64,000 bases of DNA from Candidatus Saccharimonadota bacterium (GCA_002726935.1 PBTC01000014.1:66218-130217), one strand, 5' to 3'. Shown: positions 8,806 to 55,102, counted from the stretch's first letter. The notes: generated by a model not told the origin, from the sequence alone. Translations and numbers: made by a program.

Positions 8806-9186
8806 ATGAAAAATTTAGGCGCTTTCAAAACCCAACGAGAAGCCTTGATCGCATCAAAGGTCCTGAGAAATGAGCCGCCCCTTGTAATCGCGGCGACGAA
8901 CCTGAGGTATCACCGGCACATGAAGAAGCTCACCGTGCGAGAGGCAGCGGAGCTTTGCTCAATGGCGGTTGGGACCTACACGTCCTTGGAAAAAGGAAAC
9001 CCAGGTAGCGGCGCGGACAATCTTCTAAAGGCCCTAACTGTCATGGGTGTTGACCTGAAGAAAGCTTTTGTTGCCTTGGACATGCCCCAAGGTGGGGTAG
9101 TCACGGAAATTGTTAATGGTAAAGCGCGAAGAAGTTTTCCTGAGACTAATTCTGTATGGCTTAGGTCACGGGGGATGATGCCTTGA
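8806..9186 (+). CDS. XRE-family HTH antitoxin (HipB-like)
   Basis: LTVREAAELCSMAVGTYTSLEKGNPG HTH; overlaps hipA start. Confidence 0.8.
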   Translation: MKNLGAFKTQREALIASKVLRNEPPLVIAATNLRYHRHMKKLTVREAAELCSMAVGTYTSLEKGNPGSGADNLLKALTVMGVDLKKAFVALDMPQGGVVTEIVNGKARRSFPETNSVWLRSRGMMP

Positions 9187-20827: not shown

Positions 20828-21091
20828 ATGAGTGATTCGATTTACGAGCTTAGGTTCAGGTACCAGCAGGAAAACACATTTAAGCTAACTTACACAACTC
20901 GCAATTCCCTGGTTGGCAGCCTAAAGAACACCGTGCTGTTTGCCGGGGTGCCTCTGGACCAAAATGAATTGTTGGCTGAGTTTCCGCAGTCCAGGCAGAT
21001 TGCACTGTCGTACCAGGACTTCCACAAGGAACTAAAAGAGCCATTCAAGTATTTCTGTTCAGGCGATCATGAACTGCGACGTCTGACTTAA
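20828..21091 (-). CDS. Small hypothetical protein
   Basis: Overlaps the stop of the PcfJ gene (ATGA). Confidence 0.55.
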
Positions 21092-23217
21092 GGTTTCGTT
21101 GCTCGATTAAAGGCCTTTTGGAATTCCTTACACAGCAAAGTTGCTGCGCGCTTTTCTTGCATGCTTGGAGAACGGTTCTCAAATCCTCGCACTTGATCAA
21201 TAGACCATCTGTTGCCGATCTGGCGACTTAACGACACCGTCAAGCGGTCTTTCTTGTGATTTTCAGGAAGAATTTGTGCAGAAAAGACTCTGTTTTCACC
21301 CGAAATACACCTGTTTGCATAAGTGCCTACGCAATGCCCCATAGCTTGCCCTTCCTCAATGAGTTCAAGCGCATGAGAGAGTTCTTTGAATGTGTAGGCG
21401 CCGACTTGGTGGGTCGCAAGGGTGCATGGCCACGTAAGCTGTTCGCAAGTATCCACTTGGAATCGAGCTAGCAACATCTCATCGTGCGTGATTTGAAGGA
21501 TTCTGATCGCGCGTGAGGGGGTTATTTTTCTTGGTCCGATTAGCTCGTTCATTCGATGGCTTGGCAATTGACGCAGGGCGTCTACCGCGTCACTGCAAAG
21601 GTCTTTGAGGTTCTCAACAGAGTGCCTGCTTGTCAGCACGTGCATGGACAGGGCTCGGAAAAAATGTCCATGTGGGTCTGAGAGTTGACCTGTGCGTCGA
21701 TCGTTAATGATATGAACAGCGTGTTTGTAAACTTGATACAAAAACGATAGGATCCGCGCTCGTGGCTTGTGTGGACAAAAGCTGCCCACTTCGTTGAGAA
21801 AGCTCACTACAATCTCTGCGGTGTCAGTTGGGGGCTCGCCCCATTCTTCGCAAGGAGTATCCGTGACGTCGCTGTCGCTGTGCGTGACTGGTTGCCCCGT
21901 ATTTGTGGACTGATCCCATGGTTGTGTCAGTGCCGCGCCAACAGGGATCAACAACTTGCGGGCGTCGATTGCACTCATTCTTTTGAGCAGCCGCCAGCCG
22001 GCCGGCCGCATGCCTCTTTTTTTGTATTTCGAGCGTAGCTCGTTGATTCCTTCAAAGCGGTCTTCGTGAGAAAGTTTGTGAAAGTCCGGCATGAGAGGAA
22101 TCAAAACAGGATATTCATTGTGGAATTCGCTCAACAGGATTGACCTATCCTTGCACGTGGCCATGCGGTTGTAATCGCTTAATCGAGCGTAGATTCCGTA
22201 GACTTTGGCGGTGGATGAAAGCGTCTCTTTGTCAAAGAAATTCTTCAGATATCCGGTGCCAGGACCAGCAAGGTAACGCGATCCTAGGGCCTGTTTGTTA
22301 ATCGGGTTGGCGCGATTATAGGCCCAGCGATGGACAGATGGATAAGGCGTGTAATTGGTTTGGTGAGATCGCCGAGGCAAAAAGCCGTACAGCTCGCCCG
22401 AGGGTAGTGTTATTTTGTGTTTAGCCTGAATTTCCTCAAGCAGGTTTCGTGCAGAGTAATTTAAAAGATTGGTGCAGTACTGCAGAAGATATCGCCAGGT
22501 CTGAGGCCCTATCACTTCGAGATGGTCGAGATGGACCGCCTTCAGCGGTTTAATTGCTTTGATATAGGTGTTCTTTTTGGCAGCGGGGAGCTTTAAGAAA
22601 TAGAGAATTTCCTGATAAGAGCCTAAACAGTAGCCGCGGATTTTTTCTTTCCCGTCCTTCCAAAACACGTAAGGGCCAAATCTAATCCAGTTTCCCGAGC
22701 CTTCTTGTCTGCATGGCAGGTAACCATGTTGAAACTGGGCGGAGATCAAGTCTTGCAGACATCGAGAGACGACAGTGGGGTTTTGTTTGAAGTGTTCTAC
22801 AAAGCGATTTTCATGCGCGAGGACACGAGGAAAGTCCTTTGGCTCAAGACCGTTTTTGTACCCGTGTCGAGCACAATGATCCAGGTCGCAAAACCGTTTG
22901 CCACGATGATTCTCAATAAGCCCATAAGCAAACAGACAAGCCTCTAAGAGATCGCGTCTTTTGCTATCAATCTCGTCGGAGAATGATCGGTTCCAGGTCT
23001 CAATGGCGCTATCACTTTGGAATGGCCCACACTCCTTGTGCAGATCAAACAAAATTCCATAGGATTTGTTAAGCGTGAAATCCTTGGGCTTTCCGGCCCA
23101 GTACTTCTTAGAGATTGAAGAAGGTGTTTGCAAGGATTTAACTTCCTCGTCTGGTAGGTAGCGATCTACCTCCGCAAGGATCTCGTTCTGGGGCGTTAAC
23201 CGGGTTGCCATGTCCAT
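21088..23217 (-). CDS. PcfJ-domain protein
   Basis: C-terminal LIEEGQAMGHCVGTYANRC...RLTVSL...QVRGFENR. Confidence 0.85.
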   Translation of the reverse strand: MDMATRLTPQNEILAEVDRYLPDEEVKSLQTPSSISKKYWAGKPKDFTLNKSYGILFDLHKECGPFQSDSAIETWNRSFSDEIDSKRRDLLEACLFAYGLIENHRGKRFCDLDHCARHGYKNGLEPKDFPRVLAHENRFVEHFKQNPTVVSRCLQDLISAQFQHGYLPCRQEGSGNWIRFGPYVFWKDGKEKIRGYCLGSYQEILYFLKLPAAKKNTYIKAIKPLKAVHLDHLEVIGPQTWRYLLQYCTNLLNYSARNLLEEIQAKHKITLPSGELYGFLPRRSHQTNYTPYPSVHRWAYNRANPINKQALGSRYLAGPGTGYLKNFFDKETLSSTAKVYGIYARLSDYNRMATCKDRSILLSEFHNEYPVLIPLMPDFHKLSHEDRFEGINELRSKYKKRGMRPAGWRLLKRMSAIDARKLLIPVGAALTQPWDQSTNTGQPVTHSDSDVTDTPCEEWGEPPTDTAEIVVSFLNEVGSFCPHKPRARILSFLYQVYKHAVHIINDRRTGQLSDPHGHFFRALSMHVLTSRHSVENLKDLCSDAVDALRQLPSHRMNELIGPRKITPSRAIRILQITHDEMLLARFQVDTCEQLTWPCTLATHQVGAYTFKELSHALELIEEGQAMGHCVGTYANRCISGENRVFSAQILPENHKKDRLTVSLSRQIGNRWSIDQVRGFENRSPSMQEKRAATLLCKEFQKAFNRATKP

Positions 23218-24795: not shown

Positions 24796-25530
24796 GTGGG
24801 CATTCTTACCGCCATAATGGCCTGCATTAGGTCGGCTTATCTAGCGTTCAGGCGCTTTCTCGTCTTCGAAACGAAGGGTTTTGTTGCGCGCGATCTTTGG
24901 CCCAAGGAGCACGTTTTCCCTGCGTTTATGGGCCTCTTCGGTTGGCCTTTCCTTTTGGTCGTCTTTTTGCAACTCTTATCTCTTTTCTTCACTGGCGGTG
25001 AGGTTCTCTCAAAAACCCTCAAGGATTTTGAAGACGGATATGCATGGAACGCGATCGGCTCCTTCGGGTTCGTTGTGTTTGGTTTCTTGCTTCTTTTTCC
25101 AGGCTCAACAAGGCTTCTTCGACTCGCAAGAAGCGTTCTTTTAGCCGCATCGAGTATTGGATTTACTACGTTTTATGTTTCTATCTCGACTGCTTTGTCG
25201 GGCGTTCCTTTTGGGGACATGTTACCTAGTTTTTTTGGCCAAGCTATCTTTGCTTTTTCATGGATAACTCTGTTGGCTTTTTGTTTTGTTTTTATGACGT
25301 GGTATCCCCTGCTTCTTCTGGGGGCGGATTCAGACTCCACTTCCTCGTTTCTCCTTAAGATGCAGGCAACTTCTTTGTTGTTTAGGTTGTTTGCGGGCGG
25401 CGGTCTTAGCCTCGTAACCTCGCTTGCTATTTATTGGTCAATTGTTTTTGCTCCCACCGCTGCGCATAGCGCCCCGCCAAGAATCGTGGACTCCTCTTGC
25501 GTTATTGATAGTCAAATTAGGAAAAAATAA
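24796..25530 (+). CDS. Polytopic membrane protein
   Basis: About six hydrophobic segments; GTG start after GAGG. Confidence 0.65.
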   Translation: MGILTAIMACIRSAYLAFRRFLVFETKGFVARDLWPKEHVFPAFMGLFGWPFLLVVFLQLLSLFFTGGEVLSKTLKDFEDGYAWNAIGSFGFVVFGFLLLFPGSTRLLRLARSVLLAASSIGFTTFYVSISTALSGVPFGDMLPSFFGQAIFAFSWITLLAFCFVFMTWYPLLLLGADSDSTSSFLLKMQATSLLFRLFAGGGLSLVTSLAIYWSIVFAPTAAHSAPPRIVDSSCVIDSQIRKK

Positions 25531-27935
25531 TGACAACTCATGCTTTAGCTTCAGTAGCGTCAAATTTTCATCAGTTCGAAGTCGATGAGAACATCGTCAA
25601 CGACTTGATCTACCGTCAGAACGGCACGGTTGCCACCGCCTTGGGCGAGTTGGTGATGAATGCTATTGACGCCGGCTCTGAGAAAATCGAAATCTTGGTT
25701 AGCGCCGAGGGTTTTGAGATTCGAGACAATGGCACGGGATTCGCAGATGAGGAATCTGTGATGCGCTTTTTCAAGCGTTTCGGCACGCCCCACACTGAGG
25801 GCGATGCAACCTTCGGTCGGTTCAGAATCGGTCGGGGGCAGATCATGGCTTTTGCCAGAACCACCTGGCATTCACGGACATTCAAGATGACGACAGATCT
25901 CGAATCTGGTCAGAAGGGGTTTGAGTTCGAAAAGGATGTTCCGGCCTATAGCGGCTGCAAAGTATCGGGCAAGTTTTACAAGCCGTTGAACCCCTACGAC
26001 TTGGGTAAGGTGCACGAAGGCCTGTCGGATCGCGTCCGTTATGTCTCAACGCCGGTTTTCATTAATCAGATTCAGGTAAACCCCCAGGAAAAACTGCGTT
26101 GGGATTACGAAGATGATCAGATCAAAATTGCCTTCAATCCGCAAGGCCGGTACTCGTTAAAGCTCTACTCCCTTGGGGTCTTTGTCAAGGAGCTGCATAT
26201 CCACCAATATGGCTTTCAGGCCGATGTGGTAACCAAGCAGGCGCTTAAGCTGAATATGGCGCGCAATGAGGTCAACCAGGATGACCCGCTTTGGCTCCAT
26301 GTGCATGCAGTTCTGCGTGAAGAGATGCGCAAACGAAAGCGTGGTGCCAAAACTCTCAGCGAGAATGAGCGCTCGGCGTTGATTGACCAACTGATGTTTG
26401 ATGAGGTCGCCCTTCGGGATGTTATCTCCCTGCCCTTGCTAAAAGATGTTCGCGGAAAATCTACCTCTATCTTGGTTGAGCTTCGAAAAAAGCGGCCTTG
26501 GTCGGCAATGGTGGGCTCGACCAGTGAACTACGCGACAAGCGTCTTGGGGATCGAGTAAGCGCCGGAGGTTCGGCTCTGGTTTTGTCCAAGGAGGAGTTG
26601 GATCTATGGCAATGCGATTCCATTGAATCGCTTTTGAGCAGGCTTAAGCAAAGTATTAAAACCTCCGAACTTCGGCGAAAAGAAAGCGAAAGAGACTCCC
26701 GGAATCTAGACATCTATTACATGGGTCTCCTGCAAGAGGTCCGTGTGGTGGAGTTCTCTACGTTGGCCAAGGGTTTGAGCAGTAAGTATGAGCTGATCAA
26801 GCAATCAGACCTCACTGCTTTGGAGCGAGCGCAACGCAATGCCTTGCAGTACGCGTTGGATATCGCCGCAGGCCGCTTGGCGAGAACACGAGAGATCGAG
26901 GTCACCAAAAGAAAGTTGTTCATTGGCGATGGTCTGGCCACCGCCTGGACCGACTCGAGTACCTATGTCGCTGTCAATCGAAGTACGCTGACATACTTTG
27001 AGAACGGAATCCCCGGCTTGCTTCAATTGTGCGCGATCCTGCTGCACGAGTTGACTCATGAGAGTGGTAGTGTTCTGGATAACGGACACGACCACGCGTT
27101 TTATGAGCATTTTCACGATGCGGTGCTGTGCGGCCCGATTGGAAACGACGTTCTAGGAAGCTCGGTACAGTCACTTCAGTCCAGATATTCAGTTGAGCTT
27201 CAGCGTGCCAAGTTGCCCATGCCCAAGTGGATGGATAATGATGACTTGATCACAGTGACTCTTGGGTTGAACACCTCCAAGCCCACCAAGCTGCTGTCAT
27301 GGTTCCTTAAAGAGGCCGGATTGGCACACCTATTAGGCCGTGGTGAAGTCAGAGTCCAGGCCTACATGGACCAGTTGTGGAATATGGATGTTGCCGTTCG
27401 GAAAATCAAAGCGACACTTTTTCGGCGCCATAAGCTCAAACATCTTACGCCTGAGAATCTTTCTCACATCGAGGATTTTAGAGAGCGAGCTGCGTTGATT
27501 TCCGCAGATGACAAAAGGCTGCTATGTCAGGCTCTAGAGCTAGAGGGACTTGATAATTCCGATCCCACCGTCGAGTTGCTCAATGATTTTAACCTTCCGC
27601 GCGAGGAGGTGGGGGACTGGCGGATAAGGATGAGTCATTTGAGGATGGGAAACCTCGCTGTCCTTACAAGTGCACCTGCCTTTGGAGTTGAGTATGTAGA
27701 GTCTATTCGGAGGCAGGAAGTCAAATCGATGGTGGGCAAGGATTTTTTCGTTGCTAGGGCCACATCGCGGAGGGAAACCATCGATGCCGGCAAACTGGTC
27801 AGCGAGGGCGTGGAAGGCCGCTTGGCAGCGCATAAGGAAGCTTTGGAGTCCTTGCTCTTGGGAATCAGAAATCCCCAAGAGAGAATGGAGTTCGCCAAGA
27901 GGTTTCTTAGCGAGGAGTTCAGGAGAACTCTGTAG
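25530..27935 (+). CDS. GHKL (Hsp90/MORC-like) ATPase fused to a HExxH-containing domain
   Basis: ELVMNAIDAG, IRDNGTGF, FGRFRIGRGQ GHKL motifs; LLHELTHE...GHDHAFY. Confidence 0.85.
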   Translation: MTTHALASVASNFHQFEVDENIVNDLIYRQNGTVATALGELVMNAIDAGSEKIEILVSAEGFEIRDNGTGFADEESVMRFFKRFGTPHTEGDATFGRFRIGRGQIMAFARTTWHSRTFKMTTDLESGQKGFEFEKDVPAYSGCKVSGKFYKPLNPYDLGKVHEGLSDRVRYVSTPVFINQIQVNPQEKLRWDYEDDQIKIAFNPQGRYSLKLYSLGVFVKELHIHQYGFQADVVTKQALKLNMARNEVNQDDPLWLHVHAVLREEMRKRKRGAKTLSENERSALIDQLMFDEVALRDVISLPLLKDVRGKSTSILVELRKKRPWSAMVGSTSELRDKRLGDRVSAGGSALVLSKEELDLWQCDSIESLLSRLKQSIKTSELRRKESERDSRNLDIYYMGLLQEVRVVEFSTLAKGLSSKYELIKQSDLTALERAQRNALQYALDIAAGRLARTREIEVTKRKLFIGDGLATAWTDSSTYVAVNRSTLTYFENGIPGLLQLCAILLHELTHESGSVLDNGHDHAFYEHFHDAVLCGPIGNDVLGSSVQSLQSRYSVELQRAKLPMPKWMDNDDLITVTLGLNTSKPTKLLSWFLKEAGLAHLLGRGEVRVQAYMDQLWNMDVAVRKIKATLFRRHKLKHLTPENLSHIEDFRERAALISADDKRLLCQALELEGLDNSDPTVELLNDFNLPREEVGDWRIRMSHLRMGNLAVLTSAPAFGVEYVESIRRQEVKSMVGKDFFVARATSRRETIDAGKLVSEGVEGRLAAHKEALESLLLGIRNPQERMEFAKRFLSEEFRRTL

Positions 27936-41919: not shown

Positions 41920-42208
41920 CGGACTCAAAACGCTGACCAACGGTAGTAAAGGCAAGGCCTTTTCTCTAGGCCTTTCTTTCCCTTATGATTGGTCAAACCC
42001 AGATATCCCCGACGATGCGTTGATCGCAGGCGTTCTATCTCGCGAGATATTTGAGGATATTTGCATCGTTTGTTTGCATTTTGGTTTTGATCGCGTTTCC
42101 TCCGTCTTCCAGGCGATGGTTGATTGCGGGAATGTTTCTTTTGCAGTCAGCCAAATACCTCGCATGCTTCGCAATATTCAGGAGGGGTTCAATCGTGAAA
42201 ATGGATGA
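41912..42208 (+). CDS. Putative antitoxin partner of the downstream nucleotidyltransferase
   Basis: FPYDWSNPDIPDDALIAGVL; overlaps the toxin gene start. Confidence 0.6.
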   Translation: MTDGLKTLTNGSKGKAFSLGLSFPYDWSNPDIPDDALIAGVLSREIFEDICIVCLHFGFDRVSSVFQAMVDCGNVSFAVSQIPRMLRNIQEGFNRENG

Positions 42209-43001
42209 AGTGCTATCCTCGGAGGCCAAGGAGGTATTTCTTTACCTGGCCAAGCAGCCGGAGATGTCGGGCTTTTGTCTGATAGGAGGAACCGCGTTAG
42301 CTCTTCAGGTTGGGCACAGGCGAAGCCAAGATTTGGACTTCTGCCTCTTTGACAAAAAACTTAATACGCGTGCGCTCTCGTCAATGCTCAAACGAATGGA
42401 GTCCGATAGATTTAACATTCGGTTGGCGACGTCGCCGAGTTTAATTTCTTCCTCTTTGATCAATGGTGTTGATATCCTCGATTTAGCCCAGGACTACCAG
42501 ATCAACAACACGAAAGTCACCTTTTTTGCGAGATATGACGAGCCCTATCAGTTCTTCTCTGGCTTTAAAAGGAGAATTGAACCCGGGTCTTCGTTCGATG
42601 TTATGGGCCTAGAGGGCTTGTTCTCGATGAAGTCTCATGTAATCCATAAGCGTCTGGCTTCAAGAGATCTTTTTGATCTTAAGTGGTTTATTTCAAACGG
42701 ACGGCAAATTCAGGAAATTCTAGATGTTGCGCAAAAGGCCGACCTATTGTGCTCTCCTGGGCATGCGGTTAACGTGTTAACTGGCAAGGTGCCAGTCGGC
42801 CCACTGGATGAGGGCTTGGATGCTGTAGGCGTCACTGAATCACTGGAAGATATCTACGTCTTTTTCGAGGAGAAAGTTAGGGAAATGGAAACGAGCATTG
42901 CCAGGGCTATTAAGCAAGAGCGCACCTGCCAGATCTGCAAGAAATTCCCTTGTGGCTGCGGCTCTGGATTCCGTGAGTCAGGCAGTTCAGGTCCAAACTG
43001 A
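42195..43001 (+). CDS. AbiEii/AbiGii-family nucleotidyltransferase toxin
   Basis: LIGGTALALQVGHRRSQDLDF; RDLFDL. Confidence 0.8.
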   Translation: MKMDEVLSSEAKEVFLYLAKQPEMSGFCLIGGTALALQVGHRRSQDLDFCLFDKKLNTRALSSMLKRMESDRFNIRLATSPSLISSSLINGVDILDLAQDYQINNTKVTFFARYDEPYQFFSGFKRRIEPGSSFDVMGLEGLFSMKSHVIHKRLASRDLFDLKWFISNGRQIQEILDVAQKADLLCSPGHAVNVLTGKVPVGPLDEGLDAVGVTESLEDIYVFFEEKVREMETSIARAIKQERTCQICKKFPCGCGSGFRESGSSGPN

Positions 43002-43503: not shown

Positions 43504-46221
43504 TTAAATTTTCTGGATATTCTTTTTTTTACCTCCGAACGGTCTTTTTACGGTTTCCACCTGATTTTTAACCAGATTTGCTGGCGGTGGTGACTTCGAC
43601 CCGGTGACAGAATCATTTTTTGTAATTGGGACCGAACGCATCTCATACTTTTGACCGGCCCTTTTGATCGTCGGGCCGACCATTTCTTTGATCAGGCCTC
43701 TGGGTAGCTGCCCGGCTTTTTGATACCCACTAAACAGTGCGCTAGACATGTTCAGAAGCGGCTTTTTGCCTTTTTCATAGATCCTGGTATCAAGATAGAA
43801 GAGTCTGCGGTTGTCCGGAAGCCCAGGTCTTCGCACCAAACGCCCTATGCCCTGCTTGAGCATCATGCCGGCTTCTTCGAGTGCCTGGATGTGTCGTGCT
43901 GCTGTCAGCCCTTTCGCTGCTGCGCTGATGCTTTGATTCAAAGCGTAAGGCGTGCGTGTAATGATCAAGTCGGTCACGAGATTGTCTTCCCCTGGCTCGA
44001 TGCTTTCGTCAGTCAGGTTAAGACCGGTCCAACAATTGCCTACGGCAATCCATACAGGTTTCTCGCCAGAGTGATAGATGTCAATGAACTGGGCTTTTAA
44101 CTCGGAAGGTCTGCGACCAACCCTCGGTTCTGAGACTAACAATCGAGCGGCTATTTCTGGCATCGCCTTACTTAGCGCTGAGGCGAGCTTTCCTGCACTC
44201 TCGTAGGAGGTCATAAGCACAAGGGTTCCACCGGCAGCGGTACTTGTTGACCATTTGCAAAATGTAACGAGATCCTTAATCCAGGCATCGGATTCTTTCG
44301 CGTCGTTTGATGGTTTTAGAATGACGTGTCCGGCGCCGAACTCACGACTGATGTCACTTGGTTTTGGAGGCATGTAGAGTGTGACCGGATCGGTGAGCCA
44401 CGTCTGTGGTGGCGCGCGCATCCCAGTGGTCTCTTCTGGGCGCAAGCCCAGTCCCGAGATAAATCTCCTTGATGACCAGGCGCCGCCTATGCTTGGCAGA
44501 AAAATTGTGGCCGAAAGTAACAGTGTGGACTCAATTCCCAGGGCAGAGAACAGCATCCGAAAATCAGACGTGTGGTTCGCGCTGCCAAAGAGGATTTGCG
44601 GATACTGGCGGATGGGAGAGTTAGAGAACAAGGCGATGTTATATCGGGCTGCGGAAAGCATCTTTTTAAACGCGTACTGGCTTCGACGCAACGACTGTGC
44701 CTCCTCATGGTTCCCATTGATTGAGAATGAAGTCATCACTGTGGCCAGATCTTCCGCACAGCTCACGACCAGGCGATCTTTCGCTGGAGGATTGGCCCAA
44801 TTCAAAAACACTTTTGCTCCCGCCTCAGGCATATTTGAGGAGGCCAGCCTGGAACAAAGAGATGACAGTTGATCAAAGAGTTTCGATGGCGTGGGCGCTC
44901 CCTCCGCGGGCTTGATGCCCTTGGCTTTCATGACTCGAGAAAACAAGGTAGGCAGACGCCTTACGGAGATCCTGATTGTATTGGCCGAGGAGAAGTTTTC
45001 CTCCAGCAAATGCGCCTCATCAATAATAAGGCGGTTAGGTAGCACCATTCGACCGACCTCGTTCACGTCAAAGAGAGAGGCGAAGATTTGATTTTTCTGA
45101 TCAATGAGCGATAGCAATTCTGAGTGTGTCAATTTCTGGCCGGCGGCGCCGATCGAGCGCGATTCTGCGTACAGGGTGCTGACCAGTGCCTTGGAGCTTT
45201 CATCCTTGGATAGGCCTATCACGCCGGCACGGACCCTTGCCATTGTCTCCAAGGCAAGGTAGTGATGGGTCATCACCACGATATCAGCGCGGTCTGCAAG
45301 GTTGAATTGGTCTTCATAAGCCAGTACTCCTGAATCGTCAGCGGGGCATTCCGTTGTGATGCAAACATCATTGTCCGCAAAGGGGAAAGAAGGCACATGC
45401 TCTAAAAAGGAACCCATTAACCAGCGTCTGCGATCTGCCCCCAAGGGCTTGTCGGCCAGGCGGTCTACCCACTGAATCGCTTGCTTTGTCCAGTCTTCGC
45501 CGCCCTTGGGCTTGCCCTCGTCCTCGATTAGGGTGAGCAATCTTGATTCTGAAACGAACTCTCTTCGACCAGATACCAGCGACATGACAAGGCCTGATTG
45601 CCTTCCGAACCTCTTGGAGTACTCTCCCATGAATTGTTTTTGTACCCCCAGAGAGGGAACGGCGATCCAGGTTCGTCGTCCCTCTTTGGCTGCAATCTTT
45701 GCAGCAGAAAGGGCCAGCAATGTTTTTCCGGATCCAGTCCCCATCTCTGCATAGAAGATCTTGTTGGAAGCCTCTTCTGGTTTGTTCCAAGCATTGGAGA
45801 CAAGCCAAGACAGGGTTTCCTTCTGTGCGGCGTTAAGGGTTAGGGAAATTTCTTTGTTCAAAGCCGGCAGTTTGCGAGAGACTTTGGAAACTTCTTCGAT
45901 GTTTTGCTTGATTGACCAATCGATTAACACACTACAGATTTGATTGGGGCTCACCGACAACGTGGCAGCGGCGAGGTTAATCGCTTCTCTTTCACATTTG
46001 CTACTGGAGACCACAATTCGACCGCTATCCAAAGGCTCAGACCAATCCAGGTCGAAGTTTGAGATCTCCTGAGCGCAAGCTTGCGGCTCGACGCACTCTA
46101 ACGTGTCTTTCAGCGCGGCAGTGCAGTACCGGCTCACCTGGATTTCGCTCTCCAGTCCTAGCTGTGTAACCAAGTAGTCAAGTGATGGCTTGCTGATGTG
46201 TGCGGAAAATATTTTTTTCAA
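43504..46221 (-). CDS. dinG: Type IV-A CasDinG helicase (Csf4)
   Basis: EMGTGSGKT Walker A, IIDEAH, LLLSATI, GGTLVLMTSY, LKQGIGRLVRR; adjacent to the csf operon. Confidence 0.93.
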   Translation of the reverse strand: MKKIFSAHISKPSLDYLVTQLGLESEIQVSRYCTAALKDTLECVEPQACAQEISNFDLDWSEPLDSGRIVVSSSKCEREAINLAAATLSVSPNQICSVLIDWSIKQNIEEVSKVSRKLPALNKEISLTLNAAQKETLSWLVSNAWNKPEEASNKIFYAEMGTGSGKTLLALSAAKIAAKEGRRTWIAVPSLGVQKQFMGEYSKRFGRQSGLVMSLVSGRREFVSESRLLTLIEDEGKPKGGEDWTKQAIQWVDRLADKPLGADRRRWLMGSFLEHVPSFPFADNDVCITTECPADDSGVLAYEDQFNLADRADIVVMTHHYLALETMARVRAGVIGLSKDESSKALVSTLYAESRSIGAAGQKLTHSELLSLIDQKNQIFASLFDVNEVGRMVLPNRLIIDEAHLLEENFSSANTIRISVRRLPTLFSRVMKAKGIKPAEGAPTPSKLFDQLSSLCSRLASSNMPEAGAKVFLNWANPPAKDRLVVSCAEDLATVMTSFSINGNHEEAQSLRRSQYAFKKMLSAARYNIALFSNSPIRQYPQILFGSANHTSDFRMLFSALGIESTLLLSATIFLPSIGGAWSSRRFISGLGLRPEETTGMRAPPQTWLTDPVTLYMPPKPSDISREFGAGHVILKPSNDAKESDAWIKDLVTFCKWSTSTAAGGTLVLMTSYESAGKLASALSKAMPEIAARLLVSEPRVGRRPSELKAQFIDIYHSGEKPVWIAVGNCWTGLNLTDESIEPGEDNLVTDLIITRTPYALNQSISAAAKGLTAARHIQALEEAGMMLKQGIGRLVRRPGLPDNRRLFYLDTRIYEKGKKPLLNMSSALFSGYQKAGQLPRGLIKEMVGPTIKRAGQKYEMRSVPITKNDSVTGSKSPPPANLVKNQVETVKRPFGGKKKNIQKI

Positions 46222-46307
46222 TTAAATCCCTTTGTAGACAAAATATTTTTATTGTTATAGGATACACGAAATAAATTTACTGTAAACATTTTATTAAGAG
46301 ACACACA

Positions 46308-47129
46308 ATGCGTCAGATAACAATAAAATGGCGGCTCTCAGAGCATATGAACGCCGGAGATTTTCGTAAACGATTGCGCTCTGTTAATGGAGTTGAGCTT
46401 CCAAAATTACTTTTCTGGCATGACGAAAGCGGCCAAACTGTGCGCTGCGGTCACACCAGAACCCAGCCGGGTGATGCGTCCGCTGTAGAAAAAAAGCGAG
46501 ATCGTATTGATAATTCCGCTCGCAAGCGTGGGCCTCGCACCGAGGCCGCCCTCCTGGACGATTCGCGCGCTAGCGATGACGCCATGCCTACCATCCGTTT
46601 TTTCCACTCCAAGTCTTTTGTCGGAATCCATTTCTTGGGTTCAGAGATGATCGATTTTGCGAGCCAGAATATTGCTCTGCTGATCGACTCGGCGCGCCAG
46701 GTACTGGGGCCGGTGGAGTTCGAGGTTCAAGAACCGGATTTGGATATGAAATCCAGATTGACCCCTCGTACGTACTTTATCCCAAGCTTGGCTCTTAGAA
46801 ATCCTTCGTTTGAGTTCATCTCTGTGGAGCAGTATTGCGAGCGCATTATTCAGCAGGATCTGCGCCGCCAGGCTGCCATTCTTGGCATCGATGCCCCGGA
46901 TAACCTGTATGTACGCATCACCAGCATCGGGGACCCCGGCACACACTGGGTGCGTACCAATTCAGGTCAAAAGACGGGCGGAGCTTTGCGCCTGAAGGAC
47001 GTTAAGTTCATCACCAATGCCGACTTGAAAGGATCCTGGTCCGCGGGCTCACTAATTAGCAAGGGTTTTGGCTCAATCTTGAATCCAGCGGCCGCGTCGG
47101 CGATGTCATTGCGGGGTTCAAATGAGTGA
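46308..47129 (+). CDS. csf5: Type IV Cas6-like endoribonuclease Csf5
   Basis: C-terminal G-rich loop GSWSAGSLISKGFGSI; first gene of the operon. Confidence 0.8.
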   Translation: MRQITIKWRLSEHMNAGDFRKRLRSVNGVELPKLLFWHDESGQTVRCGHTRTQPGDASAVEKKRDRIDNSARKRGPRTEAALLDDSRASDDAMPTIRFFHSKSFVGIHFLGSEMIDFASQNIALLIDSARQVLGPVEFEVQEPDLDMKSRLTPRTYFIPSLALRNPSFEFISVEQYCERIIQQDLRRQAAILGIDAPDNLYVRITSIGDPGTHWVRTNSGQKTGGALRLKDVKFITNADLKGSWSAGSLISKGFGSILNPAAASAMSLRGSNE

Positions 47130-48057
47130 CTTGACCATTGAGACAGCCCCCTACCTTTTGGGCAAGTTTTACAGCCAGTTTCCGCAGCTCGATTTGGAGC
47201 CGATATACAAAGAGGGTCGCCCCTCCCCACGGGACACACGGTGTGTTAGCTGTGCAAAACCAATCGCCGCGGGCGCGATAATGCACACCACCGATTTTCT
47301 GGGGGATAGTTTCGGGGATGCAGCATTTTTGAAGCCTTTCTCGGCTCAGCGCGGGTGCTTGTGCACCGATTGCAAGATTGCGATTGCGTTTTTCCCTTCA
47401 ACTATGCAGTTTTCTTACGCAGCGCTTGGGTCAGACCCTGAGGGCACAGGAAAGCTTGTTTCCTACAAAGTTTTCGGCATTGATGACTACATGGCTGCTG
47501 TGTATAACCCCCTGCCCGCCCCTTTTGTGCTGGCTCGCAAGGAGCGTAAAAAACAGCACATGATCTGGAAGGCCCGAGTTAACCACCATGATGTTCGGGA
47601 AGAGGACCTGTTGTTTTTTACCTCTGGAGACACTTCTTTGTGCGCACATCCTCAGAGGGTTCTGGAGGTGGCTTGCAAAGAGCAGGAGCTTTTGACCCAG
47701 GCCGCAGAGATCCATTCTGTGGGCGCAAAAAAGAAAGTACGCTTGCTCAAAGAGATCGTCCGACTGTCCGCAATGAAAGCAAACCTTTGCGCGCCCACTC
47801 TAGTTTTCAATGACTACCGCGCCTTAGCCTATGGAATCCAGGATGAGGCACTGCTCTCGCGTCTTGACGAGTTTTGCGAGGTGGTCCGCTCCTTTAGCAG
47901 CGGAGACAAGCACCTCTTTGCACACTTGAGGTTTCTGGGGACCCTAAAGAAGACGACTGACTTCAAAGCATTAATTGGTTCTCTCAAACCACGCGAAGTG
48001 GACATGCAAGCAATTATTTACGGCAAGCCCCCAGTAGAACCCGGTGTAGGTGATTAA
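47122..48057 (+). CDS. csf1: Type IV large subunit Csf1 (Cas8-like)
   Basis: CVSC...CTDC zinc finger; PAPFVL...KQHMIWKARVN. Confidence 0.85.
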   Translation: MSDLTIETAPYLLGKFYSQFPQLDLEPIYKEGRPSPRDTRCVSCAKPIAAGAIMHTTDFLGDSFGDAAFLKPFSAQRGCLCTDCKIAIAFFPSTMQFSYAALGSDPEGTGKLVSYKVFGIDDYMAAVYNPLPAPFVLARKERKKQHMIWKARVNHHDVREEDLLFFTSGDTSLCAHPQRVLEVACKEQELLTQAAEIHSVGAKKKVRLLKEIVRLSAMKANLCAPTLVFNDYRALAYGIQDEALLSRLDEFCEVVRSFSSGDKHLFAHLRFLGTLKKTTDFKALIGSLKPREVDMQAIIYGKPPVEPGVGD

Positions 48058-48134
48058 CCCCAAATCCAAGCGCAGGGCACCGGTAGCTCCGGTGTCACAC
48101 GAAACCATACAGACAGAAACACAAGGAGAACACC

Positions 48135-49313
48135 ATGATTGTAGAAGGCATTATTCGCACCAAAACCAAAATCCACGTCACCAGTGCGATTGACTCAAGT
48201 ACAAAAATTAACGCAGACGGCCAGATTGGCACCGAGGACGCTCGCATTCCATTGGCCCGTACCTATCGCACGGTGGCCTTCACCCCAGGCGGAGGACGAG
48301 TTGAGGTGCCTTTTGTTCCTGGTAACTCGATTGTCGGCCGGATGCGTCGAGCGGCGGCAACAATGATTGCGAAATCCTTGCGGGCTCGAGAACAGCAGAT
48401 CACCCGCACGACGTACCGCGGCATCAGTTGTGGCGCTGCCGATCCCAAGCCGGAGATGAATGGCCTGCAGGTTGACGAGTTCGAGCGCTATCTGAAAGAT
48501 CCGCATATTGGGTTGTTTGGCGGTGGCAAGCGTCTGTATGAAGGTGGTTTCAAGATGTTTGACTTGCTACCGGTGACCATGGCCACCATCGAAGCCGGCA
48601 TGGTGCCAGCGGAGTACGCCGAGCACATGGCGATGCTGTCCGCTGGCGAAGATGGCCGTCCAGCGATTCGGGTGACCGGCATTGATGTCCTCCACCGCCG
48701 CGACGATCTTCTGGACGGCGCCAGCGAGGAAGTGGTCTCCACAATTTCCGATTACGAGGGTCTCTTTGGCGACATGAAGCAAGAAGCAGCTCGCAAGGTG
48801 CAGGCCGCGGCAAAGCGCGCAGGCGTAAAGCTGGGCGAGGAAGAAAAGGCAGCAGACCGAGTTTCCATGAGCCAGCAATCGGCTCGGGAGTACATCGTCC
48901 CAGGGGTTGCCATGCACTTTAAGGCGGCGCTGAAAAAGCGTGTGACCAAAGAACAACTGGGTATCTGGGTCTTGAGCCTTCAGGAGGTATTCAACACAAA
49001 CGAGTTTGGCGGCGTGTCCCACCTTGGTTACGGCGAACTGAATCTGGCGGATGCGGCCGTAAACTTGGTGCTTCATGGTGCCGAAAAGTCTGCTCCCCTA
49101 TTCTCTTTGGTTCGCGAAGGCGGTCGCGATCAGTTGATCATTTCCCACCCAGAGGCCAAAGAGGCCGCGAAAGCTGCTTCCGAATGGATCTCTGGCGTTA
49201 CAAATGAGAGCTTTGAGTCCTTTTATGTCGCATCCGCTCCACCTGCTGCCGAAGGTGCCAAGGCGGCCAGGGGCAAGAAGTCTGCCGAAGGCGAGGAAGA
49301 GGTAGCAGCATGA
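48135..49313 (+). CDS. csf2: Type IV backbone Csf2 (Cas7)
   Basis: VPFVPGNSIVGRMRR, IGLFGGG, FGGVSHLGYG. Confidence 0.9.
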   Translation: MIVEGIIRTKTKIHVTSAIDSSTKINADGQIGTEDARIPLARTYRTVAFTPGGGRVEVPFVPGNSIVGRMRRAAATMIAKSLRAREQQITRTTYRGISCGAADPKPEMNGLQVDEFERYLKDPHIGLFGGGKRLYEGGFKMFDLLPVTMATIEAGMVPAEYAEHMAMLSAGEDGRPAIRVTGIDVLHRRDDLLDGASEEVVSTISDYEGLFGDMKQEAARKVQAAAKRAGVKLGEEEKAADRVSMSQQSAREYIVPGVAMHFKAALKKRVTKEQLGIWVLSLQEVFNTNEFGGVSHLGYGELNLADAAVNLVLHGAEKSAPLFSLVREGGRDQLIISHPEAKEAAKAASEWISGVTNESFESFYVASAPPAAEGAKAARGKKSAEGEEEVAA

Positions 49314-50020
49314 GTCACGCGCCGAGGCATGAACCATTCCGCGTCGATTTCATGATGTGCGCGCCGGTGCAAATGGACTACCTGCCCACGCATCTGGATG
49401 GGCTCTTGTCCTGGGCGTTCCTTCAGGAGCGTCTTGCGCTTTTTGCCTCGGGTGCCGTTGATCATGCGCCCGACCCAACGGACCTGGAGTCCGACATCTA
49501 CACCGCTCTTCCCCTGGACAAAGAAGATGACACCTTTTGCGCTAGCGTTATCTTGCCTCAAGAGGTGTTGGGTTCCTCCACGCGCTTTTACACTCGTTCA
49601 TCCGACGCCAATGCGCTGGCAAGTATCTCGATCGATGACGCGCACACAGGCAAAGGGGTTATTCTTAACCAGTCACGCATGCGTCAGATTCAAACTGCTC
49701 GAGGCCAGTTGAAAACTTGCTTGAACACTGAGCAGGTCATGCACTCCCCTGTCTTTACGGCCTACGGGATTGGCGAGATCGACAGAGTTCGAGAGCTTCT
49801 GTGTACCCATGTCTTTGGTTTGGGCAAAAACAGAGCCAAAGGATTTGGCTCACTTAGATCCATCGAGGTGAGCCCTGACGAGGATGCGAAAGAATATTGG
49901 AAGCTACGCGCAATGAGGGACAAGGAGGACGGCTATATCCCCATGGTAACTCCTCTTCGTCCTCCATATTGGAATAAGGCGGCCGCACGCATCGCGTACA
50001 TGCCCAAAGACGTTCTCTAA
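49310..50020 (+). CDS. csf3: Type IV Csf3 (Cas5)
   Basis: PTHLDGLLSWA, GLGKNRAKGFG, RPPYW. Confidence 0.88.
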   Translation: MSHAPRHEPFRVDFMMCAPVQMDYLPTHLDGLLSWAFLQERLALFASGAVDHAPDPTDLESDIYTALPLDKEDDTFCASVILPQEVLGSSTRFYTRSSDANALASISIDDAHTGKGVILNQSRMRQIQTARGQLKTCLNTEQVMHSPVFTAYGIGEIDRVRELLCTHVFGLGKNRAKGFGSLRSIEVSPDEDAKEYWKLRAMRDKEDGYIPMVTPLRPPYWNKAAARIAYMPKDVL

Positions 50021-50061
50021 GAACCATCAGCTCTTTAAAAACATAATCTTATTTTTGATCA
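50021..50061 (+). promoter_or_regulatory. Short AT-rich CRISPR leader (41 nt)
   Basis: AT-rich gap between the csf3 stop and repeat 1. Confidence 0.5.
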
Positions 50062-52110
50062 GTTGCATAGCTCTGCTTATTTTCAGGGCATGAAAGATTG
50101 TGAAAAAAATCAGGCGCGTCAGGCATGTTTCATTGCCCTCCTCATTGTCAGGGCATGAAAGTTCACGAAGCAGAGCAAGTCCTTCTTCAGGTTGAATAGC
50201 CCTGCTCATTGTAAGGGCATATAAGTCAGCATCTTGCTGATGATCACCTCCCGCTGTTGCAAGGCCCTGCTTATTGTCAGGGAATGAAAGTGTCCTACAT
50301 CAGCAAACTTACTAATCTCAGTTGCAAGGCCCTGCTCATTGTCAGGGCATGAAAGTTTCCACATTACAGCCGACAGTGTTGGTGGGTTGCATGGCCCTGC
50401 TCATTGTCAGGGCATGAAAGACACACCGTAGCTCAACCACAAATTCTTGTGTTGCATGGCCCTGCTTATTGTCAGGGCATGTAAGTTAGCCGCGTCCTTA
50501 TCTTCGTTGTACGAAGTTGCATAGCCCTGCTTATTGTCAGGGCGTGAAAGGCCTTTTCGCTGGCTAGTGTAGTGTTCTTTGTTACAACGCCCTGCTATTT
50601 TTCAGGGCATGAAAGAATCATTGCGCTATTTGAAAAAGGTGCCTAGTTGCATGGCCCCGTCCTTTGTCGGGGCATGAAAGTTGGCGATCTGCGGATAGTT
50701 GAATTCGCTCGTTGCATGGCCCAGCTTATTGTCAGGGCATGAAAGGGACTTGCCCACGGTTGAGATTTCAGTATTGTTGTATGGCCCTGCTCATTGCCAG
50801 GGCATGAAAGTAGTCAGGTGATTGCATTCATCAGTGCTATGTCGCATGGCCCTGCTCATTGTCAGGGCATGAAAATAGTGACATCCAGTCCATGAGGGAA
50901 TCGTTGTTGCACAGCCCTGCTCATTTGTAGGGCATAAAAGGATCAGCACCCATGTAGGTCGCTCCTGTGCGTTAGATTGCCCTGCTCATTGTCAGGGCAT
51001 GAAAGTATTTCCTGCAATTCATACATAGGTGTGCCGTTGAATAGCCCTGTTCAGTGTCAGGGCATGAAAGAAGGTGTCGAATTAAAAGCTGAAAAAAATG
51101 CGTTGCATGGCCCTGCTCGTTTTTAGGGCATGAAAGTAGAAATCCCATCGAATTGATTTCTCGATCGGCTGTATAGCCCTGCTGGTTACCAGGGCATGAA
51201 AGTAACATGAAGGCTAGAGTGCATGTCCAATGGCTGTATAGCCCTGCTGGTTACCAGGGCATGAAAGTATTTCCTGCAAGTCATACATAGGTGTGCCGTT
51301 GAAGATTCCTGCCTATTGTCAGGGCATGAAAGAAGGTCTTTGTCTTTGAGAAACAAAAGCTGATTGCACTGCCCTGCTCATTGTCAGGGCGTGAAAGTAA
51401 GACGATGACTGTTTTCTTCATTTTGATGGTTGCATGGCCCTGCCGATTGTCAGGGCATTGAAGCAAGTGACCCATGGCTTGTGCTCGTGGTGCGTTGTGT
51501 TGCCCTGCGCATTGCAGGGCATGTAAGACTTTGCTCGCAACTTGTCGCTGAGATAAAGCTGGATTGCCCTGTCTATCGTCAGGGCATGAAAGTCACTGAA
51601 GACTCGCTGCAAGACGAAATAAGTTGCATTTCCCTGCTCTTCGTCAGGGAATGTAAGTGTAGACCATCTGGCTAATTGCGTTTTCTGGTTGCATTGCTCT
51701 GCTCATTGTCAGGGTATGAAAACTGAGTGCCAGATCTTTTTTTTACGTTGCTGTCTTATCGCCCCTTTTTGTAGGGGCATGAAAGTGTTGTGACCCTTGG
51801 AGTCGATCTTTGGGGTTAAATGGCCCTGCTCATTGTCAGGGCATGAAAGAAGCTCCGCAGAATTCACATAGAGTTGAGAGTTGCCTGGCCCTGCTCGTCG
51901 TCTGGGCATGTAAGAATTTGCTCGCAACTTGTCGCTGAGATCAATTTGGATTGCCCTGTTTATCGTCAGGGCATGAACGAGCGGTGCGTGAATCCTTGGG
52001 AAGTGCGCGGTTGTATAGCCCTGTTCGTTGACAGGGTATGGAAGCTAAAACACCCCTATTCTCGGCAACCCCGAGTTTGCATTGCCCTGTTTATTGTCAG
52101 GGCGTGAAAT
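50062..52110 (+). CRISPR. CRISPR array: 32 degenerate repeats (consensus GTTGCATGGCCCTGCTCATTGTCAGGGCATGAAAG, 35 nt) and 31 spacers of 29-31 nt
   Basis: Regular ~65-nt period; GCCCTG/CAGGGC stem plus ATGAAAG 3' handle. Confidence 0.97.
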
Positions 52111-54208: not shown

Positions 54209-55102
54209 TCACATCGAAAATTTGCTCCCTGGGGGACTTCCTGGTTTCATGGCTGCATTTGCTTTTTCAATCACCGTAGACAACGACGAACCCAGATACC
54301 CCCAGAAATCCGGATTCTGGATTGTCTCAACCGAAACCCTTGTAGGCAGAAATCTTGCCATCTCGGACTCGAAATCAGCTCTAGTTTCGTCGGCATTTAG
54401 GACCTGATCTTTGTGTTTCTCTATCAATCCAAGGAATTCGTTTTGGTCTTTCCCCCTCATTTCCAGCTTCTGGGTGATGTGCGCTCGGGAGGCTTCAGCA
54501 CGCTGACGTGTTAACCAAACGATATCCCACAAATCACGAGGTTTGATTCTTCGCTCACGATAGGCAAAGGCAATCAGTTTGTCTGCCATGATTTCATTAA
54601 GACTTTGCACGGGCACAAGAACGCCAGAGACCTGAGAGCCAATGCCGTAATGGTCTTCGAGCGGCCTGTTTAGGACGCTAAGTGAGTCATATGCACAGAC
54701 ATCGATGTGCAAACGTTGCGAAGGAAGATCTTTTCTGTAAGAATCCCGCGTAATGGTCACTCTCCAGCTCGCAGTATCCCCTCTCATTTCAGTTGGTGAT
54801 CCTACTGAAACCGGCAACCCATATTTCGTCTCAAGGCATTCTTTAAGGTGAGCATCGAGACCATCAAAAGATTTTGGATTGAAGTTCACTCCAGCAGTGA
54901 AATCTAGGTCTTCGGACAATCGATTGGAGCCGTAACACATCCTGAGCGATGTGCCTCCAATGAATGTGATCTGGCTTAATACTCCCGCATTCTTTAGAGC
55001 CTGCATCAAATCGTGATGCAAGACCTCCTTTTCTACGGCAGCCTCCAAACCCACGTACTCGGGGTGCCGGCTAATTACATCCTTGACTATCTCATTAAGC
55101 AT
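54209..55102 (-). CDS. AbiEii-family nucleotidyltransferase toxin; C-tail KPGSPPGSKFSM
   Basis: EKEVLHHDL, FIGGTSLRMCYGSNRLSEDLDF, KPRDLWD. Confidence 0.88.
   Translation of the reverse strand: MLNEIVKDVISRHPEYVGLEAAVEKEVLHHDLMQALKNAGVLSQITFIGGTSLRMCYGSNRLSEDLDFTAGVNFNPKSFDGLDAHLKECLETKYGLPVSVGSPTEMRGDTASWRVTITRDSYRKDLPSQRLHIDVCAYDSLSVLNRPLEDHYGIGSQVSGVLVPVQSLNEIMADKLIAFAYRERRIKPRDLWDIVWLTRQRAEASRAHITQKLEMRGKDQNEFLGLIEKHKDQVLNADETRADFESEMARFLPTRVSVETIQNPDFWGYLGSSLSTVIEKANAAMKPGSPPGSKFSM

Follow-up and report, generated by a model that had tools for sequence, protein, structure and literature searches.

Known type IV-A systems of CRISPR are linked to adaptation modules of type I-E or I-F. The locus analyzed here, a type IV-A system located at positions 43504 to 52110 of a 64,000-nt stretch of DNA deposited under Candidatus Saccharimonadota bacterium (GCA_002726935.1 PBTC01000014.1:66218-130217; the entire stretch is referred to as the window), is reasonably probable to be a working module on a defence-rich element, the spacers of which are most likely inserted in trans by the Cas1-Cas2 proteins of a type II-C system. 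Acquisition of spacers in trans from I-E Cas1-Cas2 has been described for the type IV-A3 system of Klebsiella (bioRxiv 10.1101/2023.06.23.546257; PMC7038947), which is also devoid of an integrase, carries a leader and a repeat that mimic those of the co-occurring adaptation-competent system and targets competing mobile elements. The partner of IV-A3 is a class 1 system of type I-E, with Cas6e, 29-nt repeats and the acquisition motif 5'-AAG, whereas the apparent partner in the present case belongs to class 2 and the array is read in the direction opposite to that of the donor; experimental proof exists for IV-A3 only. The donor type II-C also serves the type VI-B system of Flavobacterium columnare, which uses II-C adaptation in trans with opposite transcription and a flipped side of the protospacer adjacent motif (PAM) (Hoikkala 2021, PMC8092290). 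As proposed here, the recipient array of F. columnare is read from the leader and the acquisition motif lies on the opposite side of the protospacer, but its effector is the RNA-targeting class 2 protein Cas13b and the likeness of leader and repeat is weaker, whereas the present locus encodes a predicted multi-subunit, DNA-binding IV-A effector on a mobile element.

Among the type IV-A systems, that of A. aromaticum EbN1 shares with the window the gene order, the position of the array after csf3, the processing enzyme Csf5 and a repeat that consists of a hairpin and a short ...GAAG tail. The proteins are nevertheless distant (Csf2 26% and Csf5 28% identical), and the EbN1 array comprises nine identical 29-nt repeats with a CCCCGCG/CGCGGGG stem and 32-33-nt spacers, whereas the window contains 35-nt repeats, 31 of 32 being distinct, and 30-nt spacers. 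The EbN1 stem resembles the I-E repeat of E. coli, as judged by eye and not scored as significant, whereas the repeat of the window is II-C-like. The type IV-A1 system of Pseudomonas (P. oleovorans / P. aeruginosa) acts by a CasDinG-dependent and nuclease-free mechanism that is similar to CRISPR interference (CRISPRi), and the same kind of mechanism is predicted for the present system; IV-A1 differs by a Cas6f-like Cas6, a separate Csf2 branch and an array period of 61 nt.

The csf genes were scored with the NCBIfam equivalog models, and the helicase domains of DinG were taken from Pfam. Four of the five csf genes exceeded the respective NCBIfam cut-off, and csf1 remained below it (59.7 versus 140 bits). 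The latter gene encodes 311 amino acids (aa) at a position that is conserved in all IV-A references, and the 311-aa open reading frame (ORF) at the same position in a 95% relative (L012) is annotated as Csf1 (Pfam PF27781). The orientation of csf4 divergent from csf5-csf1-csf2-csf3 is common to EbN1, Burkholderia MBR-1 and all members of the clade described below, and in the window the layout given in the initial annotation, with the array starting 41 nt past csf3, was confirmed at the stated coordinates. The best solved-structure match of Csf5 was the A. aromaticum protein 6H9H (E 3.7e-13), and CasDinG matched the structures 7XEX, 8E2W and 8RFJ (E ~1e-39). At 905 aa, CasDinG exceeds the solved chains (626-748 aa); the alignment starts at residue 396, and the long N-terminal region that precedes this residue is without match in these chains. 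The Pfam domains Helicase_C_2, ResIII and DEAD were detected in CasDinG, and the scan with Pfam and NCBIfam models revealed no HNH or other nuclease domain. Accordingly, the type IV-A core is present, with Csf2 and Csf3 above the cut-off, a DinG-family helicase, Csf5 and an adjoining array. The variants of Pinilla-Redondo 2020, A1/A2 with a Cas6f-like and A3 with a Cas6e-like enzyme (and a Cas8-like protein), do not accommodate the locus: its enzyme is Csf5, and its 35-nt repeat is unlike I-E or I-F repeats, the variants being defined by 28-29-nt repeats that are I-F-like or I-E-like. The variant IV-A2 of the 2025 classification, in which HNH is fused to CasDinG, does not apply either, as helicase domains alone were found. 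The locus is thus predicted to constitute a complete type IV-A interference module of the Csf5 type.

Comparison of Csf2 with the plasmids in PLSDB yielded best matches of about 26% identity over most of the length, EbN1 included, along with shorter stretches of 31-34%, and Csf5 matched solely EbN1 and a Burkholderia plasmid (28-30%). A collection of 5.8 billion proteins contained seven related Csf2 clusters at 55-95% identity, beyond which the values dropped to 27% or less. In a maximum-likelihood tree, the Csf2 clade was monophyletic with 100/100 support on a stem of ~2.1 substitutions per site; it formed a loose group with the Csf5-bearing references (83/85), and the IV-A1 system of P. aeruginosa branched elsewhere. 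These data bear out the proposal of the initial annotation that a divergent IV-A lineage is present, and no nesting in a well-characterised IV-A1 clade with identical features was observed in the Csf2 phylogeny. The clade represents a small, deep and distinct lineage of type IV-A. Its carriers are the cultured isolate Limnobacter alexandrii LZ-4, a metagenome-assembled genome (MAG) from a pond that belongs to the same GTDB genus (G002) and several metagenome contigs; since only two of 26 Limnobacter species representatives contain the lineage, its sporadic distribution fits mobility.

No member of the Cas1, Cas2 and Cas4 families was matched in the window, for which their absence had been noted initially, nor in the 143-kb contig or the whole 1.34-Mb bin from which the window derives. 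Moreover, the assembly contains no second CRISPR array, the bin no Cas9, Cas1 or Cas2 of the type found in G002, and none of the relatives carries cas1, cas2 or cas4 near the locus; a search for type II-C systems around the order to which the bin is assigned likewise yielded nothing. The absence of cas1 holds for the window, the contig and the bin, and it says nothing about the true host genome, because the bin is chimeric and the host chromosome lies mostly outside it, as shown below.

The pond MAG G002 carries the IV-A lineage together with a complete type II-C locus on a separate contig, encoding Cas9 (TIGR01865, 240 bits), Cas1_NMENI (196 bits) and Cas2. Directly upstream of its cas9 gene, an imperfect anti-repeat on the opposite strand (L019:6120-6155, G002:C97) likely marks a gene for the trans-activating CRISPR RNA (tracrRNA). 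The II-C array of G002 consists of 35-nt repeats and 30-nt spacers, which is the geometry of the IV-A clade. Read as the reverse complement, the G002 II-C repeat terminates in TGATACAAT, which is an extended -10 box of the kind found in Neisseria II-C repeats. This box indicates that CRISPR RNA (crRNA) is transcribed toward cas2 and that the cas2-proximal flank is the leader, and transcription of II-C arrays from repeat-embedded promoters toward the leader has been described (PMC8092290, PMC12477760). The basis for comparison was provided by 25 additional II-C arrays from Burkholderiales, an order in which type II Cas1 was detected in 47 of 401 sampled genomes (~12%); this panel has 36-37-nt repeats, with one of 35 nt, and 30-nt spacers.

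For the comparison, the repeats were aligned in register, each being oriented identically with respect to its cas operon and leader, and p values were derived from shuffles. The G002 II-C repeat was identical to that of the window at 19/35 positions (p 0.0016), to that of L014 at 21/35 (p < 0.0002) and to that of L017 at 20/35 (p 0.0002), compared with 10-15 identities between the other II-C repeats and the IV-A repeats. The leaders were compared in register over the 32 nt before the first repeat (null 8.5 +/- 2.5), and the G002 II-C leader was matched by L012 at 23/32, by the window (50030-50061) at 19/32 (null 8.9 +/- 2.4, p < 5e-5) and by L014 at 18/32 positions, no other II-C leader exceeding 16/32 with these three. 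With leader and repeat combined (67 nt), 36-41 identities to G002 II-C were obtained, versus a panel median of 20-22 and a next-best value of 25-29. The IV-A arrays have the following parts in common with G002 II-C: the leader, the 7-9 nt with which the repeat begins, a TTGT(C/T)AGG block and an ATG(A/G)AA tail. The most divergent member of the clade, L021, has a 36-nt repeat ending in GGGGGCTATAAC and resembles another II-C family, whose repeats end in GGGAGCTACAAC, at 20/36 positions overall and at 13/16 in the 3' half. The II-C repeat itself does not fold on the same strand (-5 kcal/mol, z +0.3). We read these similarities as an indication that the IV-A lineage may have taken over a leader-repeat unit of the II-C type and built a Csf5 hairpin into its centre. 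The IV-A array is expected to be without the repeat-embedded promoter and the tracrRNA anti-repeat of II-C, since its transcription would start at the leader and Csf5 would process the transcript. The borrowing of adaptation from a different CRISPR type that the initial annotation had suggested thus gains support from the 35+30 geometry and the in-register match of leader and repeat to G002, with II-C as the apparent partner, and a pairing of IV-A with II-C adaptation in trans is probable as judged from these sequences.

The same likeness could have arisen by sequence exchange without functional crosstalk, that is by recombination or gene conversion between co-resident arrays or by a II-C system that copied IV-A, with the spacers coming from another source. 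Such exchange would agree with the coexistence of both systems in G002 and with the 35-nt repeat of G002 II-C, which is atypical in the panel. The best matches to the G002 II-C leader were found elsewhere, however (23/32 in L012 and 19/32 in the window), whereas the IV-A array of G002 itself reached 18/32. Moreover, the II-C repeat is constrained by the tracrRNA anti-repeat and keeps its embedded extended -10 box, and the common spacer length of 30 nt would be set by the ruler of an integrase and not by exchange. We consider this explanation improbable, though the least so of those weighed against insertion by II-C proteins.

The repeat consensus of the window is GTTGCATGGCCCTGCTCATTGTCAGGGCATGAAAG (35 nt), and the spacers comprise 28-31 nt, with 23 of the 31 being exactly 30 nt long, which results in a period of 65 nt. 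In five of six reference IV-A arrays, the repeats measure 28-29 nt, the spacers 32-33 nt and the periods 60-62 nt; the initial observation that the repeat is longer than usual in type IV-A is correct with respect to these five, but not with respect to Thioalkalivibrio K90mix, the array of which is 36+36, so that a long repeat by itself is not unique to the present clade. On plasmid pTK9001 of the latter strain, Thioalkalivibrio sp. K90mix (L102, ~6888 onward), 36-nt repeats alternate with ~36-nt spacers at a period of 72 nt; this geometry, off 29+32, is possibly tuned to yet another type of adaptation. All arrays of the present clade are 35-36 + 30, including that of the cultured isolate, and the presence of 35+30 arrays with 23 repeats in L. 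alexandrii LZ-4, with 19 in the pond MAG and also in metagenome contigs indicates a trait of the lineage rather than an assembly artefact.

The repeats of the window array are highly heterogeneous, with 31 of 32 sequences being distinct and a mean of 4.8 differences from the consensus; 19/19 repeats are distinct in the pond MAG and 17/23 in the L. alexandrii isolate. The sole identical pair in the window, R18 and R19, deviates from the consensus at seven positions in each copy and encloses a unique spacer, and the unit R18-S18-R19 may represent the footprint of a mid-array insertion made by an integrase. Block duplications resembling those of S15/S19 and S23/S29 are also found in the arrays of relatives. 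Adjacent repeats are marginally more alike than random pairs (7.6 versus 8.0 differences, p 0.05), a difference that is not relied on here. Despite this heterogeneity, repeat positions 9-14 and 23-28 form a hairpin in which 96% of the cells are paired, versus 85% in shuffles and 25-56% with the partner slid. Compensatory changes were detected in four of the six pairs, the pair 9:28 being seen as G-C, A-U and C-G, and none of 500 shuffles reached the observed level of covariation. These data suggest that the hairpin is under selection. Two or three outer pairs between positions 5-7 and 29-31 are plausible, with weaker signal. The repeats fold at -12.5 to -16.7 kcal/mol, the hairpin of the window at -13 kcal/mol.

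For the identification of targets, the arrays were subjected to BLAST searches against 26 Limnobacter genomes. Matches were obtained for 15 spacers, with 28-31 of 30-31 nt identical, and correspond to 13 distinct protospacers. Two of these spacers, 6 and 24, belong to the window. Spacer 6 matched 28/30 positions at L114 7810-7839 with the 5' flank TTT, its version in L012 matching 30/30; spacer 24 matched 28/30 positions at L114 7157-7186 on the same strand, 650 bp from the target of spacer 6, with the 5' flank TTC. Both target the 5' part of one gene for a 1707-aa protein (L114:2928-8051, G807:C38) with a tyrosine-recombinase domain at residues 1266-1402, which is located at the border of an island and housekeeping genes in G807. 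At least six spacers of the L. alexandrii-type arrays match one integration module in at least five genomes. In this module, large genes follow one another beside a canonical phage-type integrase, and one of them codes for a recombinase domain; at L120:6030-14202 (G821:C3) the gene products comprise 678, 903 (recombinase domain), 286 aa, 304 aa and, for the phage-type integrase, 424 aa, with housekeeping genes adjoining, and homologous regions are present in G811, G804, G807 and G002. It presumably resembles multi-recombinase genomic islands. The first spacer of L021 matched 30/30 positions in five species, within a DUF3800 gene. At another island border, a giant ORF of 1811 aa (L126:6227-11662, G001:C1) matches no family, with IV-A spacers directed at its upstream neighbour. 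Regarding the spacer searches proposed initially, the comparison of the whole array with PLSDB plasmids and INPHARED phages yielded no spacer match, whereas the Limnobacter genomes provided targets in integrated elements and a PAM. Likewise, three spacers, searched with every sixth base masked, had no match in IMG/VR, and no spacer matched the bin outside the array. The matches to integration modules suggest that the system is directed against competing integrative elements that reside in the same hosts, and a role of type IV-A in inter-element conflict has been described (PMC7038947; bioRxiv 10.1101/2023.06.23.546257).

The 5' flanks on the spacer-sense strand showed a T at position -1 in 10/13 protospacers (p 2.5e-4) and a Y at position -2 as well as at position -3 in 11/13 each, corresponding to the motif 5'-YYT. 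The flanks of the ten best-matched protospacers were TTT, CTT, CTT, CCT, AGT, CCA, TTC, GCT, TTC and TTT. No comparable motif was present in the 3' flanks, inspection of the 5' flanks by eye revealed no convincing distal N4 PAM of the Neisseria type, and the strand bias of the protospacers (7/9 coding-sense, p 0.18) was not significant. The flanks TTC and TTT of the two protospacers of the window may be compared with the TTC-type PAM reported for Pseudomonas IV-A1 (PMC8175902). In L017_S9, L017_S21/L023_S14 and L023_S16, the first base of the spacer is G and that of the target C or T; it may be that in some units the repeat extends 3' by one more base, or that there is no selection on position 1.

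The locus of the isolate and that of a metagenomic relative (L017/L023) are 96.4% identical in their cas genes and have three of ~22 spacers in common, in differing order, and the loci of the window and L012, 91% identical, have spacer 6 in common, with two point differences. These two comparisons indicate a slow turnover of spacers that is not confined to the leader end and fits rare and partly ectopic insertion. They also bear on the possibility that the array is a decaying relic that no longer acquires spacers, its repeat heterogeneity being mutational decay and its II-C likeness old ancestry or chance. A relic would account for the 31 differing repeats, whose distance from the consensus grows toward the distal end, for block duplications in place of clean polar growth, for the lack of Cas1 in the bin and in the L. 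alexandrii isolate, and for the persistence of spacer 6 with point mutations. In decay, however, one would hardly expect that each of the eight lineages of the clade, at 55-97% Csf2 identity, retains the five cas genes intact, that the hairpin is maintained through compensatory changes, that identical repeats surround a unique spacer, that loci as similar as L017 and L023 differ in most of their spacers, and that spacers still match extant targets beside a PAM. A relic therefore appears unlikely, marginally more so than sequence exchange. Still more doubtful is a different helper, either another module making 30-nt spacers or an integrase that the element itself encodes and that escaped recognition: many ORFs of the contig are without family match and II-C is missing from two of three host assemblies, yet Cas1, Cas2 and Cas4 are absent from the contig, the bin and the neighbourhood of the locus in relatives, and II-C in particular is indicated by the leader as well as by the lengths of repeat and spacer.

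How a II-C system would feed the IV-A module can be outlined as follows, in a scheme to which we assign slightly better than even prospects: a class 1 IV-A effector on a mobile element would be supplied by the adaptation machinery of a class 2 II-C (Cas9) system by means of copied leader and repeat ends, a Csf5 hairpin, reading of the opposite strand and rare ectopic insertion. The array would be transcribed from the csf side, and Csf5 would recognise the hairpin and cut its 3' base to leave a short ...GAAAG 5' handle, by analogy with Csf5 of EbN1, the best structural match. Csf1, Csf2, Csf3 and Csf5 would assemble on a crRNA with a 30-nt guide, and the guides would, according to the in silico matches, find tyrosine-recombinase/integration modules beside 5'-YYT on the spacer-sense strand. 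As in the work on IV-A1 and IV-A3, recruitment of CasDinG would silence the target and not cut it, to the disadvantage of rival elements. When the host has a II-C system, its Cas1-Cas2 would insert spacers in trans, this source being the most likely one because the locus has no integrase of its own and because the leader, the repeat ends and 3' half, the 35-nt repeat and the 30-nt spacer match G002 II-C. Cas9 may choose the PAM in this step; the II-C system of Neisseria inserts at the leader end, and its Cas9 sets the PAM (PMC12477760). The PAM end of the spacer would enter facing the leader, and since II-C is read toward the leader and the IV-A array away from it, the PAM-facing end would become the 5' end of the spacer, where class 1 effectors need the PAM. 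Acquisition would be rare and partly non-polar, and each insertion would duplicate the local repeat variant, so that repeats would not be homogenised but drift, with selection keeping the Csf5 hairpin and the handle.

Several observations weigh against insertion by II-C proteins. The co-occurrence of the IV-A lineage with a matching II-C system rests on one genome, G002; Cas1 is absent altogether from the L. alexandrii isolate, and the bin lacks most of the true host genome of the window. In the L017/L023 sub-clade, to which the isolate belongs, the leaders match the G002 II-C leader weakly (14-15/32, p 0.01-0.03). The 5' arm of the hairpin and the centre of the repeat are unlike the II-C repeat, and II-C Cas1-Cas2 would have to tolerate this centre. 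A scan of the 41-nt leader for a sigma-70-like promoter was negative. Furthermore, the II-C spacers yielded no protospacer from which a Cas9 PAM could be read for comparison with YYT. Since a PAM that starts at the first flanking base would be unusual for II-C Cas9 proteins, YYT may stem from a preference of Csf1 and not from acquisition.

The origin of the window was deduced from the composition of the assembly, which comprises 1.34 Mb in 45 contigs and is classified in an order of ultra-small genomes (0.6-1.2 Mb), same-genus relatives of the assigned taxon being complete at 0.7-0.9 Mb. Principal component analysis of tetranucleotide frequencies placed nine contigs (C13, C14, C19, C26, C36, C37, C41, C42 and C43; ~537 kb) in a separate cluster that includes the contig of the window, C14 (143 kb; window = C14:66218-130217), and that coincides with the Limnobacter loci L014, L015, L017, L019 and L020, the bulk of the bin being located elsewhere. 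The MAG is a chimeric bin, and the contig of the window was mis-binned into a small-genome MAG. The tetranucleotide cluster, the IV-A relatives in Limnobacter and the spacers matching elements in Limnobacter genomes assign the window to a Limnobacter-like betaproteobacterium, the chromosome of which is mostly absent from the bin. A third group of contigs (C7, C17, C22, C24 and C29) has a GC content of 57-60%, and a CheckM-type contamination value of 2.2% fails to reveal the chimeric nature of the bin. Contig C42 (44 kb, Limnobacter-like cluster) holds 21 of the 57 tRNA genes of the bin.

Contig C14 contains no tRNA genes, and no housekeeping genes were found among its ORFs that were scanned. 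Its cargo includes several HipA kinases, two AbiEii proteins, two PcfJ-like proteins and a JetC-like SMC ATPase, as well as a C5 methylase, PBECR5, RdgC and a GHKL ATPase; apart from the PcfJ-like proteins, nothing on the contig was recognised as serving replication or conjugation. C14 is an accessory, defence-rich element, either a plasmid or integrative. The features of the IV-A locus are compiled in Table 1. The locus is flanked by two AbiEii toxin genes, and HipA, PcfJ-like, GHKL ATPase and RdgC genes are also present in the window, the genes of this apparent defence and toxin-antitoxin island being located at 42051-43001, 54209-55102, 9183-10664, 21088-23217 and 25530-27935. In the relatives L014 (4556-5155, 14062-14481) and L020 (4510-5160), a gene for an ART-PolyVal (ADP-ribosyltransferase-like) protein that was not seen in the window adjoins dinG.

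Table 1. Features of the type IV-A locus in the window, with positions counted from the first nucleotide of the 64,000-nt stretch
Feature	Position	Strand	Evidence or remark
csf4/CasDinG helicase	43504-46221	-	905 aa from TTG start; TIGR03117 573 bits (cut-off 400)
dinG-csf5 divergent intergenic region, 86 nt	46222-46307	.	ORF coordinates; presumed promoters
csf5, Cas6-like crRNA endoribonuclease	46308-47129	+	NF045575 160 bits (cut-off 150)
csf1, Cas8-like large subunit, probable PAM reader	47122-48057	+	TIGR03114 59.7 bits (cut-off 140); conserved position
csf2, Cas7 backbone subunit	48135-49313	+	TIGR03115 210 bits (cut-off 130)
csf3, Cas5 subunit	49310-50020	+	TIGR03116 183 bits (cut-off 140)
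Leader, 41 nt, conserved GCTCTTTAAAAACA motif	50021-50061	+	Motif kept in L012, L014, L020
CRISPR array, 32 repeats and 31 spacers	50062-52110	+	Hamming-distance scan
Spacer 6	50421-50450	+	28/30 to recombinase gene, Limnobacter genome G807
Spacer 24	51593-51622	+	28/30 to same G807 recombinase gene as spacer 6
R18-S18-R19, identical atypical repeats around unique spacer	51168-51267	+	Putative mid-array insertion signature
Internal block duplication, S15 ~ S19	51006-51362	+	S15/S19 29/30 identical
Second duplicated spacer pair, S23 and S29	51529-51557 and 51915-51944	+	25 identical nt in common

With respect to its novelty, no report of a pairing of IV-A with II-C is contained in the type IV survey, the study of IV-A3 acquisition in trans, the type IV review and the 2025 classification update. 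The cross-type use of II-C adaptation is already known for type VI, and no new principle is involved here. If the proposed pairing is correct, a IV-A lineage shaped by II-C would extend the borrowing of adaptation across the two CRISPR classes and would point to mobile elements adjusting their arrays to the CRISPR type that is common in their hosts, type II Cas1 occurring in about one eighth of the sampled Burkholderiales. The locus would also illustrate that an array may occur in nature and remain functional even though nearly all of its repeats differ, and this heterogeneity bears on the question of what Csf5 and the integrase each read in the repeat as well as on the design of recombination-proof multiplex arrays. 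The cultured carrier L. alexandrii LZ-4 makes the idea directly testable, with the targets identified in silico and the YYT motif as the starting point.

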